Assembly: GCA_043781255.1 (NCBI GenBank) | Contig: JAYWBQ010000001.1 | Coordinates: 1 to 57,210 of the forward strand | DNA length: 57,210 nt | Direction of reading: 5' to 3' | Source: Minisyncoccota bacterium | Lineage (GTDB): Bacteria; Patescibacteriota; Minisyncoccia; Phycocordibacterales; UBA5272 | Shown: positions 2,331 to 8,186 of the stretch, one piece after another | How the letters are laid out: each line of letters opens with the position of its first letter | How positions within the stretch are numbered: the first letter of the stretch is position 1 | Program-made: the position numbers and the translations under genes | Notes under the pieces: generated by a model | Told to the model about the DNA's origin: nothing | The model's input: the letters and a program-made list of their open reading frames with translations, nothing else | Database searches by the model: none

Positions 2331-2732
2331 ATGCTAAAAGAATTTAAACAATTTTTATTGAGGGGGAATGTCGTTGATCTAGCTGTTGGTGTCGTCGTCG
2401 GTGCAGCGTTTGGAACAATCGTTACCGCTTTAGTAACTGATCTTCTCACTCCTCTCATTGCGGCAATTGCTAAAGTGCCCGATTTTGGAGGACTCTCATT
2501 TACTCTCAATGGTAATCAGTTCATGTATGGTCACTTTATCAATGCACTTATATCCTTTGTCCTTGTCGCTGGAGCGGTATTCTTTTTTGTTGTCAAACCA
2601 ATGAATATGCTCATTGCAAAAGCCCGTAAAGAATCACCCGCAGATCCAACAACCAAGAAATGCAAAGAGTGTCTGAGTGAAATACCTCTTGAGGCAAGAC
2701 GTTGTTCACACTGCTCTCAAGTTGTTGGTTAA
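2331..2732 (+). CDS. mscL: Large-conductance mechanosensitive channel with C-terminal CxxC..CxxC zinc-ribbon tail
   Basis: MLKEFKQFLLRGNVVDLAVGVVVGAAFG.IV..LV.D; YG.FINA.I.F; C-terminal KKCKECLSEIP..ARRCSHC. Confidence 0.95.
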   Translation: MLKEFKQFLLRGNVVDLAVGVVVGAAFGTIVTALVTDLLTPLIAAIAKVPDFGGLSFTLNGNQFMYGHFINALISFVLVAGAVFFFVVKPMNMLIAKARKESPADPTTKKCKECLSEIPLEARRCSHCSQVVG

Positions 2733-2763
2733 TAATAGATTATCAACAATTGAATTAAAAACT

Positions 2764-2949
2764 GTGAAAACATTAAAATGCGATTTGTGCGACATAACAG
2801 CAGCAGGCGAAACTTTTGAAGCGTGGATGAAGGCACTTATGCCACACTATATGCAAGCTCACGCTGATGTAATGAACAACCCAAGCAAGACCAAAGAAGA
2901 CCAGCAGAAATGGATGGTTGAAAACAAGACACGATTTGAAGCGGCATAG
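2764..2949 (+). CDS. Small metal-binding protein (DUF1059-like), GTG start at 2764
   Basis: MKTLKCDLCD...GETFEAWM..LMPHY..AH: CxxC plus HxxxxH; the track ORF start at 2677 overlaps mscL and is unlikely. Confidence 0.65.
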   Translation: MKTLKCDLCDITAAGETFEAWMKALMPHYMQAHADVMNNPSKTKEDQQKWMVENKTRFEAA

Positions 2950-2968
2950 GGAGCATTCCCTACCTTTT

Positions 2969-3057
2969 TATAATTTCTTTTCAAAACGGCGGGGATTTGC
3001 GCGCGCACTTGGCGGAGGGGGCAAGTACACACAGATTTGTTTGTGCTTAGCACATCC
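2969..3057 (+). repeat. Truncated copy A of promoter-linked GC-rich element (see 4752-5035)
   Basis: TATAAT 2969-2974, then 6 nt, then tcaaaacggcggggatttg-gcgcgcac..gg.gga.ggggcaag...agattt.tttgtgc..agcac.atcc; about 62 of 79 positions match 4764-4842 by manual alignment. Confidence 0.85.
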
Positions 3058-3132
3058 ATAGGTTGATGTTGTTGAACTTCAATTTTTTGCGAGGATATAT
3101 AATAAAGACATTAACTACTTTATAAAATAATT

Positions 3133-4098
3133 ATGAACTGCAAACATTGTGATAATAAATTAGCGAATGATGTAAAATTTTGTAATAAATGTGGCAAACC
3201 CGTGGAGGCAGAAAAAATAGAAAAGGATATTGTGGAAATAGAATATTTTTCTATTTCTCCTAAACGATTAGCCCTTCTGTCAGTTTTAACATGGGGACTG
3301 TATGAAATCTTTTGGTTTTATAAAAACTGGGAAGCGATAAAAAAAGCCGAACAACAAAAAATTTCTCCGCTCGGAAGGGCAATTTTCGCAGTTTTTTACT
3401 GTAATGGTTTTTTTAAAAAAGTATTGCAGTCAGCGAAGAGGCATGGTTATAGCGATTCATATTCGCCTGGAATGTTGGCAACTGTTTACATAATTCTACT
3501 TTTAGTCGGCAATGGTCTTAGTAGAATTGAAAATACAACTCTCGAATTAGATGTTCTTTGGCTGTTGATTTTGATTTCCTCTTTTATTCCGTTGCTATCT
3601 GTACAAAAAGCTATCAATTTTAACAACTCAAAAATTATTCCTAATTTTGATAGAAACAGAAAATTTTCGAAGGGAGAAATAATCTTAACAGTTATTGGTT
3701 TCATTTGGTTTTGGTTAGTCGTCTTGGGAACGTTCTCCTCTCTAATTCCTGATAGTTATAACTCGTCTTCAAGTGGCTATACAACAGCAGAACTTGTTAC
3801 GGAAACAGTTAAAGAAGTAAAAGCCAGTATGATATTGCCAAGCAAGATTGACGAAGTAACGACACTTGTTGATGTTACAGCAGAACCAACAGCTATTCGT
3901 CACCACTACATGCTTTCGGGTGTTGACACAAGTAAGCTCTCAAATGATTACCTAAAAAGTTATTTAGGTTCAAGTATTTGTGAAAACGCTGACACTAAAA
4001 ATCTTCTAAACCAAAACATAAACATGGAGTATTCGTATGTTGTTGATTCGGGAGAAAGATATTTCATATCTTTTACTAAAGCTGATTGCTTACAATAA
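3133..4098 (+). CDS. Zinc-ribbon membrane protein
   Basis: N-terminal CKHC...FCNKCG; LLSVLTWGLYEIFWFYKNW (DUF4234-like); several TM segments; soluble C-terminal domain. Confidence 0.75.
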   Translation: MNCKHCDNKLANDVKFCNKCGKPVEAEKIEKDIVEIEYFSISPKRLALLSVLTWGLYEIFWFYKNWEAIKKAEQQKISPLGRAIFAVFYCNGFFKKVLQSAKRHGYSDSYSPGMLATVYIILLLVGNGLSRIENTTLELDVLWLLILISSFIPLLSVQKAINFNNSKIIPNFDRNRKFSKGEIILTVIGFIWFWLVVLGTFSSLIPDSYNSSSSGYTTAELVTETVKEVKASMILPSKIDEVTTLVDVTAEPTAIRHHYMLSGVDTSKLSNDYLKSYLGSSICENADTKNLLNQNINMEYSYVVDSGERYFISFTKADCLQ

Positions 4099-4100
4099 TT

Positions 4101-4583
4101 ATGTTTTGCGATAAATGTGGAAAAGAAATAAAGGATGGCGATAAATTCTGCAATAGTTGTGGGGCGGTTGTTGGTATGAATGAAAAGAAAAACTATTGGA
4201 AATATCTCGGCTACGCTTGGATAGTTATTGTTAATTTAATAACTATCGGCGTTGTGCTAGGTATTTATAGCAACTTGTACCAAACTTTTGAAGTCATTGT
4301 CGTATCACTTTTAATTTTGATTTATTTAAGTATTCAAACTTTTGCAATGACATACGGCAATGCAACAATAGACACAGCTTTTTCAATGAATTTTGAATTT
4401 CAGAGAATAAGAAAATTGGTACAAAAAAATCAAATTAACGAGGATGAGGAAGAAAATGAAAGAGAGGAAATACAGGAGGCAAGAAAAAAGGCTGATAAGG
4501 CAAAAATAAAGATGTACATAAATGCAGGATTTGCCTTCATTGTTTACATAATTGCTCTTTGGAATATTTTTAATTCGCTTTAG
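4101..4583 (+). CDS. Zinc-ribbon membrane protein (ATG 4101)
   Basis: MFCDKCGKEIKDGDKFCNSCG zinc ribbon; three hydrophobic segments. Confidence 0.75.
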   Translation: MFCDKCGKEIKDGDKFCNSCGAVVGMNEKKNYWKYLGYAWIVIVNLITIGVVLGIYSNLYQTFEVIVVSLLILIYLSIQTFAMTYGNATIDTAFSMNFEFQRIRKLVQKNQINEDEEENEREEIQEARKKADKAKIKMYINAGFAFIVYIIALWNIFNSL

Positions 4584-4763
4584 ATAAATATACCAGAAGA
4601 CGATAAAAATTTACTGATAGAAGGAAGCGCTTATAAAGTAATTAGGGGTGCTTTACGCTATGACGGATTTGCCACTTAAGATCGAGCACAAGCCACAAAG
4701 CAAAACTGATTCGACTAACCCTGTGTAATGAGGGAGGAATCTCCGTCATTTTATACTATTTCG

Positions 4764-5035
4764 TCAAAACGGCGGGGATTTGTGCGCGCACAGGGAGGAC
4801 GGGGCAAGCAGAACAAGATTTATTTGTGCCTGAGCACGATCCGCTTTGAGGGGTTAGTGCCGAACTCGGTCGAAGCCACAGAGTTTCAAGTTGCCACTAA
4901 ACACGGAGAGAAAGCGCCTCCCGCGAGTCCGCGAGTATGTCCAAGGTGCGCTGGTTTCGTATTCCCAGGCAATCGGAGCGTACGACGCGGTTTCAAGCCA
5001 CCACGCGCTCCTCCCGTGCGAGTCAGTCCTTATCG
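4764..5035 (+). ncRNA. Candidate ~270-nt structured non-coding RNA (unknown family)
   Basis: TATACT 4752-4757 six nt upstream; 4787-4799 pairs with 5009-5020 (12 bp, one bulge), extended by G-U-rich pairing of 4770-4780 with 5025-5035; internal stems; GC-rich relative to flanks; 5' part duplicated at 2981-3057. Confidence 0.5.
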
Positions 5036-5100
5036 GGATTTTGCTCAAAATACATTCGAACTTCGTCTAATACACATCGCCATACTAAAAAAGTATTGGA
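5023..5100 (-). pseudogene. Possible C-terminal remnant of a serine-recombinase-like gene
   Basis: Minus-strand frame reads SNTFLVWRCVLDEVRMYFEQNPDKD*, resembling the W..L..VRT(Y/F)F C-terminus I recall from CPR recombinase-family proteins; no N-terminal part present. Confidence 0.35.
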
Positions 5101-5145
5101 GTAGACACATAAACCGGTAAGATCGATATGTAGTACACTGGTAGC

Positions 5146-5673
5146 ATGCAAAAATTTAAAAAAGTATCAATAATACTGTTGATAATTTTAACCTCTTTGT
5201 TTATCATGGGAAGATATTTTTACTATGGTTCTTTGTTTAGAAATTGTATTTACACTCAAGAGAAAATAAATCTTCCAGAAAAAATTAAAAATGGTTATTT
5301 TATAACGGTTAAAGAAGCTTCTCTAATAAATATGAAGGGGGAGTATGGATGTCTTTCTTATTTTAAAAATATAAGCATTGATTTTTTACTTGCTCAACGA
5401 GAAGCTTCTTGGTCTAGTGGTGAGGGTAGGGATTTTTTTTCAGGTAAAAAGTTAAAAATGATTGATATAGTTTCTGTGACTAAACATGGTATTAGTACGA
5501 TAGATTCAGGCTCAGGTCCTCTTGAGTTTTATATTGTCGAAGATGAGTTTGGTGCTAAACATGTTATGTTGATACCTGTAAATGATGAAGATTATTTTGC
5601 TTTATTTTTCTCAGGTAGTGGTACGGTAGGTTTGCCAATTAATGATGATAATTTTAAAAAATTATTAAAATAA
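5146..5673 (+). CDS. Hypothetical membrane-anchored protein
   Basis: 175-aa ORF with N-terminal hydrophobic anchor; TACACT -10-like box 6 nt before ATG. Confidence 0.65.
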   Translation: MQKFKKVSIILLIILTSLFIMGRYFYYGSLFRNCIYTQEKINLPEKIKNGYFITVKEASLINMKGEYGCLSYFKNISIDFLLAQREASWSSGEGRDFFSGKKLKMIDIVSVTKHGISTIDSGSGPLEFYIVEDEFGAKHVMLIPVNDEDYFALFFSGSGTVGLPINDDNFKKLLK

Positions 5674-5727
5674 TTAGTGACACATATATCTATTTTAGAG
5701 CATAAAAAATATTCTATAATACCATTA

Positions 5728-5804
5728 TGGAGCTTGGAGCTTGGAGCTTGGAGCTTGGAGCTTGGAGCTTGGAGCTTGGAGCTTGGAGCTTGGAGCTTGG
5801 AGCT
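5728..5804. repeat. Heptamer tandem repeat (TGGAGCT)x11
   Basis: 11 perfect copies read directly. Confidence 0.97.
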
Positions 5805-5960
5805 TTGAGTGCTTAATCCACTTTCTCCGCCGCATTATGAGCGTACTCGCGACCAGATTTTGCGCAGTTCGAGAAGTTCGGCTGAATTAGCAAATTCACT
5901 TCTTGGAAGCGAAGACTTAGAAATCTAGCAAGATTTCTGGCAATTTCAAGGAGCCATTAC

Positions 5961-6059
5961 AGGATTGCGATTTTAACAGACTGGTTACAGTCTAAAAAAT
6001 CGGGAACCCTAAAGGATTGCGATTTTAACAGACTGGTTACAGTCTAAAAAATCGGGAAC
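5961..6059. repeat. Two identical 47-bp palindromic direct repeats (5961-6007, 6013-6059)
   Basis: aggattgcgattttaacagactggttacagtctaaaaaatcgggaac x2 with a 5-bp spacer; internal hairpin agactg/cagtct and cgattt/aaatcg. Confidence 0.95.
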
Positions 6060-6198
6060 ATACCCATGACTATGATTATACTTACACAAGTATAATCTTT
6101 ACAATTAGCAGTGTTCTTTCTGTCACAAAATTACTATCTCATCTGTTAATCTAGATATAAGGAGATATCATTCTCTGTATATCCTAATCCTTAAAACT

Positions 6199-8096: not shown

Positions 8097-8186
8097 GGAG
8101 GATTGGATGAGTGGCTTAAATCAACGGTTTACTAAACCGTCGACCTTTTATTAGGTCCGTGAGTTCGAATCTCACATCCTCCGCCA
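8097..8186 (+). tRNA. tRNA-Ser, anticodon ACT (A34), long variable arm, encoded CCA
   Basis: Acceptor GGAGGAT/ATCCTCC, G73, CCA; anticodon stem ACGGT/ACCGT with loop TTACTAA; variable arm GACCT/AGGTC; T-arm GTGAG-TTCGAAT-CTCAC; TATAAT upstream. Confidence 0.9.

Follow-up and report, generated by a model that had tools for sequence, protein, structure and literature searches.

A probable relic arm of a large serine recombinase cassette in a Minisyncoccota genome

Large serine recombinases (LSRs) move a range of elements and prophages, as illustrated by the phiC31, Bxb1, A118 and TP901-1 integrases, by Ccr of SCCmec and by TnpX of Tn4451. Integrons use a tyrosine recombinase, acting on attC sites of 57-141 nt that are folded as single strands; the Mx8 integrase, Int, is a tyrosine recombinase as well. 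Here we analysed a stretch of 57,210 nt from a Minisyncoccota bacterium (assembly GCA_043781255.1, contig JAYWBQ010000001.1, positions 1 to 57,210 of the forward strand; hereafter, the window), which contains a GC-rich non-coding tract and, upstream of it, a partial second copy. From sequence comparisons we consider it likely that positions 4726-5082 are one arm of an LSR-driven integrative gene cassette that occupies tRNA 3' ends (mostly of tRNA-Ser) in a lineage of the Candidate Phyla Radiation (CPR), and that the copy in the window is a relic. The term arm denotes the non-coding end module of the element, made up of 5' core, body, 3' module and a terminal 48-nt motif.

The element shares with other LSR-moved elements the position of the recombinase at one end of the island, next to its site, and the shortness of that site (~48 bp), which is partly symmetric around TTCGAA. 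It differs from them in its target, a tRNA 3' end, in an open reading frame (ORF) that runs across the crossover and so yields two C-termini, and in the inverted repeats of ~120 nt that flank the LSR gene and the inverted arms of ~200 nt that flank the cargo. In a review of myxophages, attP of Mx8 is described as lying inside the int gene, and integration as providing a new C-terminus that changes specificity (PMC6070905); Mx8 is the closest precedent for a C-terminus changed by integration. The present element resembles it in that the attachment site falls inside the 3'-terminal part of the recombinase gene and the C-terminus changes on integration, but the recombinase is of the serine type and genome assemblies contain both C-terminal forms. 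According to the 2014 Islander paper (PMC4383910), no serine-family integrase was known to use tRNA genes as its target. The islands treated there consist, like ours, of a tRNA gene, an adjacent integrase, cargo and a far end resembling a tRNA 3' end; unlike them, the loci described below have an LSR at the tRNA (56 of 65 loci), and the repeat at their far end imitates the tRNA end (TTCGAA, 16 nt, CCGCCA) without being copied from it. Integron cassettes are comparable in that small, promoter-poor cargo lies between sites with conserved ends and variable, hairpin-forming centres, whereas here the arms measure 200-680 nt, occur as inverted pairs and go with a serine recombinase. A full-text literature search, with subscription journals outside its coverage, returned no description of this element family, which seems undescribed in the searchable literature.

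Recombinase loci and the 48-nt motif

The window genome (G000) comprises ~0.9 Mb, is 97% complete and has a GC content of 0.38. Homology searches covered 96 genomes of its family (G-numbers denote genomes, L-numbers loci), and the counts for LSR loci were drawn from the best 80 metagenomic loci for one LSR (L076-L155), each denominator being the number of assessable loci. Read in its window orientation, the 48-nt motif ended 120-133 nt upstream of the start of an LSR gene in 53 of 55 loci. This adjacency, together with the identity of the antisense frame as an LSR tail (see below), supports the proposal, made in an earlier reading of the window from its sequence only (the sequence-only reading), that the tract belongs to a recombinase-linked element carrying cargo. 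A convergent tRNA gene overlapped or abutted the LSR 3' end in the 56 loci mentioned above (tRNA-Ser in 53; tRNA-Asp, tRNA-Pro and tRNA-Ala in one each), and at two loci an inverted motif took the place of the tRNA. By their domains (Resolvase, Recombinase and a zinc ribbon in Pfam) the proteins are ordinary LSRs. In 47 of 48 loci the 3' end of the LSR gene was repeated, in inverted form, within the 200 nt upstream of the gene (median length 120 nt, median identity 99.2%). Where two opposed motifs were present (19 loci), inverted arms of 194-240 nt, 91-100% identical, invariably surrounded 1.7-3.5 kb of cargo; examples are L051 (3027-3230 and 5215-5420) and L074 (4870-5105 and 6606-6950), with 17 further loci. 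The distal arms of such pairs, which have no LSR downstream, were 91-100% identical to the proximal ones. In a minority of loci (L084, L101, L129) the LSR unit was reversed and ran into the motif. LSR genes thus occur in both orientations between the tRNA end and the pseudo-tRNA motif, with two alternative C-terminal tails, and it is possible that the recombinase gene is self-inverting. Three whole islands (G030, G088 and G093) showed the order tRNA, LSR, cargo, arm with motif, flank; the arms of G088 and G093 included a 5' core. One cargo gene of G030, an ORF of 366 aa, resembles D-Ala-D-Ala ligase by eye.

The features of the window locus are given below. R1 is a covariance model of the 5' core, and H1 is the first hairpin of the core.

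2943..3065, + strand: copy A, a solo 5' core with AGGGAGC, H1 with TATAAT in its loop, the near-palindrome TGCGCGCGCAC, a G-rich run and the gtgc/gcac hairpin
3133-4098 and 4101-4583, + strand: two zinc-ribbon membrane-protein genes, candidate cargo (ORFs, Pfam zinc-ribbon matches)
4726..4849, + strand: copy B, the 5' core of the full arm, with H1, palindrome, G-rich run and GTGC/GCAC hairpin (R1 match)
4739-4752 pairing with 4766-4779, + strand: H1 in copy B, with TATACT in its loop
4781-4792, + strand: palindrome TGTGCGCGCACA of copy B (from the sequence)
4826-4829 with 4834-4837, + strand: GTGC/GCAC hairpin of copy B (from the sequence)
4850..4972, + strand: arm body, GC-rich with many hairpins, among them a gcgcct/aggtgc helix and a cgcg-agtc-cgcg hairpin (GC profile, alignments)
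4973..5034, + strand: conserved 3' module, GAGCGTACGA ... GTTTCAAGCCACCAC ... hairpin (nhmmer match, alignments of 10 and 22 sequences)
5023..5082, - strand: antisense frame WRCVLDEVRMYFEQNPDKD followed by a stop, an alternative LSR C-terminal tail (BLASTP, frame conservation)
5035..5082, + strand: 48-nt motif, a putative attachment half-site, GGGATT...AAAATACATTCGAACTTCGTCTAATACACATCGCCA (motif comparison, alignments)
5083..5151, - strand: upstream part of a 42-aa open frame (BLASTP and tblastn: no recombinase similarity detected)

Homology among the loci stopped directly after ...CCGCCA, and the motif end resembles a tRNA 3' end (CGCCA). The antisense frame, (W)RC[VL]LD[EK]VRxYFxQNP.., was intact in 22 of 27 motif rows; of the remaining five, two are noise-level matches. 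Its proline codon appeared as CCC, CCG, CCT and CCA, and differences fell on codon positions 1/2/3 in the numbers 1049/816/1264 (20 rows, 2 of them spurious picks), variation that looks coding. A C-terminal LSR remnant read in frame into the motif-encoded tail in G030 and G088, and the intact LSR genes of G030, G088 and G093 ended within the antisense of tRNA-Ser, tRNA-Val and tRNA-Glu, respectively. A protein search with the G030 remnant yielded 81 LSR homologues from CPR bacteria. The motif-encoded tail ended 15 of them (nine being at least 480 aa long), while 43 had a tail of the W-R-x-x-D-S-N-P-R type, which we interpret as tRNA T-arm antisense; another 14 stopped no more than 3 residues from W-R, and nine ended otherwise. 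In the window, the 42-aa antisense ORF matched the full-length LSR P0001 (13 of 17 residues identical, E 1e-9, P0001 residues 499-515 of 516), the match covering only residues 24-40 of the ORF. The sequence-only reading had seen the stop of a recombinase-like remnant overlapping the 3' end of the tract in antisense. A C-terminal tail and its stop are indeed encoded there, but the tail is all that survives. The part of the frame upstream of it (5083-5151) had no recombinase similarity in BLASTP; the flank is therefore not the duplicated LSR 3' end that is usual upstream of the gene.

These data can be accommodated by a model in which the last 48 nt of the arm would form one half of the recombinase attachment site, mimicking a tRNA 3' end (TTCGAA ... 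CGCCA); the exact crossover point is one that we infer. With the recombinase gene joined to the motif, the 48 nt would encode its last ~18 residues on the opposite strand. With the gene joined to a tRNA, the protein would end in a tRNA-antisense tail. Because the recombinase frame crosses its own attachment site, the C-terminus changes with the state of the DNA.

It is conceivable, though in our view doubtful, that the arms act at the DNA level, as inverted repeats or folded single-stranded sites (compare integron attC and invertase sites) serving the inversion or exchange of cargo. The inverted arms around cargo at all 19 two-motif loci, the near-identical repeats flanking 47 of 48 LSR genes and the occurrence of the LSR unit both ways round between tRNA and arm would all fit such a role, as would the loop of the 3' hairpin, which occurs among loci as TCC or as GGA, as after a palindrome flip. 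The arm in the window, however, has no inverted partner, and the wobble pairs of H1 (see below) favour RNA over DNA pairing. To our knowledge, moreover, double-stranded sites of ~40-50 bp suffice for serine integrases, with no need of arms.

Variation and base pairing in the arm

The repeat that had been noticed in the window, a motif of ~78 bp, is genuine: it belongs to a repeat family, D1, in which 2948-3046 (copy A) and 4731-4829 (copy B) are 77% identical over 99 nt, and R1 scored 117.2 bits at 2943-3065 and 121.9 bits at 4726-4849. The two hexamers (TATAAT, 2969-2974; TATACT, 4752-4757) each lie 6 nt 5' of a common 'tcaaaacgg', and both copies have the gtgc-loop-gcac hairpin, as described from the sequence. 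In the alignment the homology of copy A is lost after this hairpin, past 'atccata'; neither arm body nor 3' motif follows. The GC content of 150-nt windows spanning 4775-4999 was 0.56-0.58, against 0.38 for the genome, which agrees with the tract having been called GC-rich; such a composition is not unique, however, as the genome has 194 other stretches of at least 53% GC. The end that had been assigned to the element, 5035, is too early, the conserved element extending to 5082. Two candidate identities for the repeat were discarded. A repeat pair of a diversity-generating retroelement would call for adenine-specific mismatches, and those of D1 are of all kinds (judged by eye); a miniature inverted-repeat transposable element or insertion sequence would have terminal inverted repeats, and the left end (AGGGAGC...) and right end (...ACATCGCCA) lack inverted similarity.

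When used as a DNA query, the tract matched in 13 of the 96 family genomes, with its 5' ~80 nt and 3' ~90 nt hitting separately and many of the matches at contig ends. R1 found the 5' core in 11 of the 96, exceeding 90 bits in only four. Relatives follow one plan, in which the 5' core and the 3' end are conserved and the hairpin-rich middle varies; overall they range from ~270 to 680 nt (~410 nt in G029, ~640 nt in G057, ~350 nt in the window). The 3' module and motif of the window gave an nhmmer match at 4973-5101 (E 1.8e-30). In G088 and G093, which belong to another genus, AGGGAGC, TGTGCGCGCAC and GGGnGGGnGGGGCAAGCAC are kept and the hairpin bearing TATAAT is lost or replaced; conservation therefore does not extend to the supposed promoter. 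Two unrelated arm types exist among the loci, and many LSR-proximal arms have only the 48-nt motif in common, being otherwise wholly different (their matches to the 3' module start at about model position 58). The 3' module was also considered as decayed coding sequence for a recombinase N-terminus (AWWLET vs AWHPDR), for which a six-frame BLAST search gave no support; L016 is the only locus with a true LSR fragment (residues 121-181). Likewise, an 'aagcaaggaa...' module first taken for an LSR remnant is perhaps better read as one half of a long A/T-rich inverted repeat (L080, L084). Direct repeats of the GCCAC type, potential protein-binding sites, were not enriched in the arms: 34 of 500 shuffles were as high as the window arm, and 113 to 415 of 500 as high as the other seven.

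The strongest sign of conserved pairing came from H1. Among 16 aligned cores, in an alignment fitted to the model structure, with two weak matches among its rows, 13 of 14 pairs had changed on both sides; the covariation score was 0.382 as compared to 0.146 in shuffles, none of 500 reaching the former, and slid registers gave at most 0.087. Seventeen cells of H1 are G-U or U-G and fit the + strand only. In copy A, L016, L018, L080 and G093, the 5' core comes after the stop codon of a co-directional gene, and the only + strand terminator-like site in 2700-5300 is that of copy A (TAGGGA/TCCCTA and a T run, 2947-2962). On these two grounds we infer that H1 probably terminates cargo transcription in the + strand RNA. 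The 5' core would thus start with a hairpin of variable sequence at the end of the preceding cargo genes, where it probably serves as a + strand terminator, and the GC-rich middle could be regarded as a string of exchangeable hairpins.

The behaviour of H1 as a + strand RNA hairpin raises the question of whether the arm could be a cis-acting structured leader of the LSR mRNA, tuning LSR expression, with H1 insulating it from the cargo operon and the whole being antisense to the LSR 3' end when flipped. The arm and the LSR are indeed co-directional and evenly spaced (120-133 nt in 53 of 55 loci), and in L084, L101 and L129 the LSR enters the arm from the other side. We nevertheless judge this improbable: many proximal arms share nothing beyond the 48-nt motif, the arms are of two unrelated types, and distal arms, without an LSR downstream, match the proximal ones at 91-100% identity.

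The sequence-only reading had proposed an undescribed non-coding RNA of ~270 nt with its own promoter. In this form, a free-standing structured + strand RNA gene whose promoter would be the TATACT/TATAAT box and whose partial duplicate would be copy A, the proposal is unsupported and we hold it to be very improbable. A tract that is GC-rich and ORF-poor in a genome of 38% GC would suit it, as would the conserved ends with a variable centre, as found in many large RNAs, the covariation and + strand wobbles of H1, and one compensatory change in the gtgc/gcac hairpin (GCGC/GCGC in L084); other loci carry different hairpins at this place. The long-range stem of 12 bp with one bulge (4787-4799/5009-5020), a further point in its favour, is present in the window and appears in the minimum free energy (MFE) fold, but it is not kept in L016 or L018, and duplex energies are those of shuffled sequences. 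Two substitutions in the window 3' module weaken the local hairpin and generate the match to 4787-4799. The outer stem, 4770-4780/5025-5035, pairs at 10 of 11 positions with four wobbles and is likewise part of the MFE fold; it falls, however, because the bases 4770-4780 are occupied by the covarying H1. Pairing between 5' core and 3' module was at shuffle level in three loci, 33 (window), 113 (L016) and 33 (L018) of 200 shuffles being as good. Nor does the fold as a whole exceed expectation, the MFE against 200 shuffles per strand having z = 0.07 (+) and -0.22 (-). The 3' module (alignment A1, 10 sequences; the larger arm alignment has 22) showed a single invariant hairpin of 7 bp with 0 covarying pairs out of 7. 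Since only H1 covaries and long-range pairing does not rise above shuffles, a structured RNA spanning the arm is unsupported.

The promoter fares no better. A promoter scan called neither hexamer and found no -35 partner, the region totalling 9 sites against 8.3 expected, and the -10 box sits in the H1 loop and is missing in G088, G093, L084 and L134, where H1 has another sequence or is gone. The middle of the element tolerates changes of 190-400 nt, and the last 48-60 nt are accounted for by recombinase coding and docking. That the tract does not resemble tRNA, tmRNA, RNase P or signal recognition particle (SRP) RNA was borne out: no Rfam family reached its gathering score or E<=10 in the arm, the four matches at E<=10 in 2900-5200 being of chance level and all outside it, and ARAGORN found no tRNA or tmRNA here. 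Two further RNA identities were rejected. The element does not stand for an SRP or 6S RNA missing from the genome, as it matches none of these models and its middle is unconserved; a group II intron, or a tmRNA-like or tRNA-like 3' end, as suggested by GUGCG and TTCGAA...CCA, had no model match and no T-stem that could be drawn by eye. As a hairpin-rich tract that lacks ORFs, is rich in GC and lies next to a recombinase gene, the arm resembles the HEARO/omega RNAs, the IS110 bridge RNA, ROOL and GOLLD. It differs from these large RNAs of mobile elements in lacking any Rfam match at E<=10 and any long-range covariation, with the proviso that the bridge RNA may lie outside Rfam. We know of no serine integrase that uses a guide RNA.

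The window copy as a relic

The intact counterpart of the window locus is L080, where an XRE-type regulator and two further genes are followed by 5' core, arm, 3' module, motif, remnant ORF, LSR and tRNA-Asp. The window arm is collinear with that of L080 save for ~190 nt present in L080 only. Both L080 and L084 combine an arm collinear with that of the window with an intact LSR.

Several observations weigh against assigning the window arm to an LSR cassette. No LSR was detected on the window contig in a tblastn search with an LSR, no inverted partner of the arm was found, and the motif is not followed, after 5082, by a duplicated LSR 3' end. No tRNA abuts the motif either; a decayed tRNA-Ser (~5790-5830) and an intact one (8097-8186) lie further on, both on the + strand and not convergent. 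It is therefore through the homology of its arm, and nothing besides, that the window copy joins the family. The zinc-ribbon genes are flanked by 5' cores in direct repeat, which also departs from the usual inverted arms of ~200 nt (19 of 19 loci), and among the first 27 loci from family genomes, taken with 1.5 kb of flank per side and many of them cut by contig ends, only three distinct loci showed LSR similarity. Further points concern what the arm does. The covariation of H1 and its 17 wobble cells imply that the arm, at least in part, functions as + strand RNA, albeit from the fitted alignment with its two weak matches, and a role for the arm as RNA may accordingly be entertained; pairing between 5' core and 3' module was somewhat above shuffles in L080 (11 of 200 as good) and L084 (8 of 200).

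The 48-nt motif occurs once in the window genome. The only LSR of the matching type there is a truncated copy on contig C8 (residues 7-186), with no full-length one. As an LSR is absent both beside the arm and from the island, the window copy is classed as a relic and not as an active element; with its cognate recombinase gene gone, the arm would be immobile, and any mobility of this locus would belong to its past. Six LSR genes or fragments lie elsewhere in the genome, on contigs C8, C2, C32, C43, C28 and C47, and the copy on C8 among them breaks off after about residue 190.

Copy A may be a second arm of which the 5' core alone is left, and the genes that lie between copies A and B were probably cargo once. 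In the zinc-ribbon pair only PF13240, on the second protein, exceeded the Pfam cut-off. The first protein, of 321 aa, is found in 4 of the 96 family genomes, at 25-31% identity in the three other than G000. That the two genes formed one cargo unit, as the sequence-only reading supposed, is plausible but unproven. To the left of copy A lies a gene for 60 aa, found in five other genomes, in none of which a 5' core follows it; in G034 and G075 it stands beside an apparent tRNA (by eye). The synteny of this left flank was too diverged to follow, the 60-aa gene alone being found elsewhere. In our reading, 2943-5082 is what is left of one or two cassettes that have lost their recombinase.

Other features of the neighbourhood were recorded in passing. 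The gene for the MscL channel (2331-2732) has an additional C-terminal tail, CxxC...CxxC, resembling a zinc ribbon (weak PF10571 match), and the two candidate cargo genes downstream also start with zinc ribbons. At 5727-5940, about ten tandem GGAGCTT units run into the apparent decayed tRNA-Ser, in which a D-arm-like 'tgagtgcttaatcca' is fused to 'ctttctccgcc', and then into a module of ~110 nt; in G056 (L060) this module follows each of two tRNA-Ser genes and a third copy stands alone. Two direct copies of a unit of ~53 nt (ggattgcgattttaacagactggttacagtctaaaaaatcgggaac) occupy 5962-6060, and copies 80-91% identical to it are present in G049, G067 and G054, of the same genus. ARAGORN assigned the anticodon ACT, unusual for bacteria, to tRNA-Ser genes in the window (8097-8186), L051 (7059-7148) and L060 (1627-1714); the tRNA beside the LSR of G030 is of this kind. 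As for the standard RNAs of the window genome, on contigs C10 and C30 tmRNA scored 102 bits and RNase P gave only a full-length match of 24.9 bits at a contig end. No match to RF00169, RF01854 or RF00013 (small and large SRP RNA, 6S RNA) was obtained in the genome. The RNase P, SRP and 6S RNAs are either divergent or unassembled.

Implications for CPR genomes

If the arms and the LSR are taken together, a self-switching cassette can be imagined, a proposal that we put forward tentatively and with more doubt than belief. The LSR gene, lying between the tRNA 3' end and the pseudo-tRNA site, would flip between two orientations, thereby acquiring one or the other of two C-termini and two upstream regions; the arms would allow inversion or exchange of cargo, and part of the arm would take part in control as + strand RNA. 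The window would hold a dead copy. The dependence of the C-terminus on the state of the DNA could offer a simple means of controlling direction or stability.

The analysis accounts for the GC-rich tract as the relic of a mobile element and removes a false candidate for a new class of RNA. The LSRs and their short sites might serve as orthogonal integrases. CPR bacteria, with genomes below 1 Mb, appear to carry many small serine recombinase cassettes at their tRNA genes, and in metagenome bins of CPR bacteria many contig breaks, and many islets that vary between strains, may be due to such cassettes.

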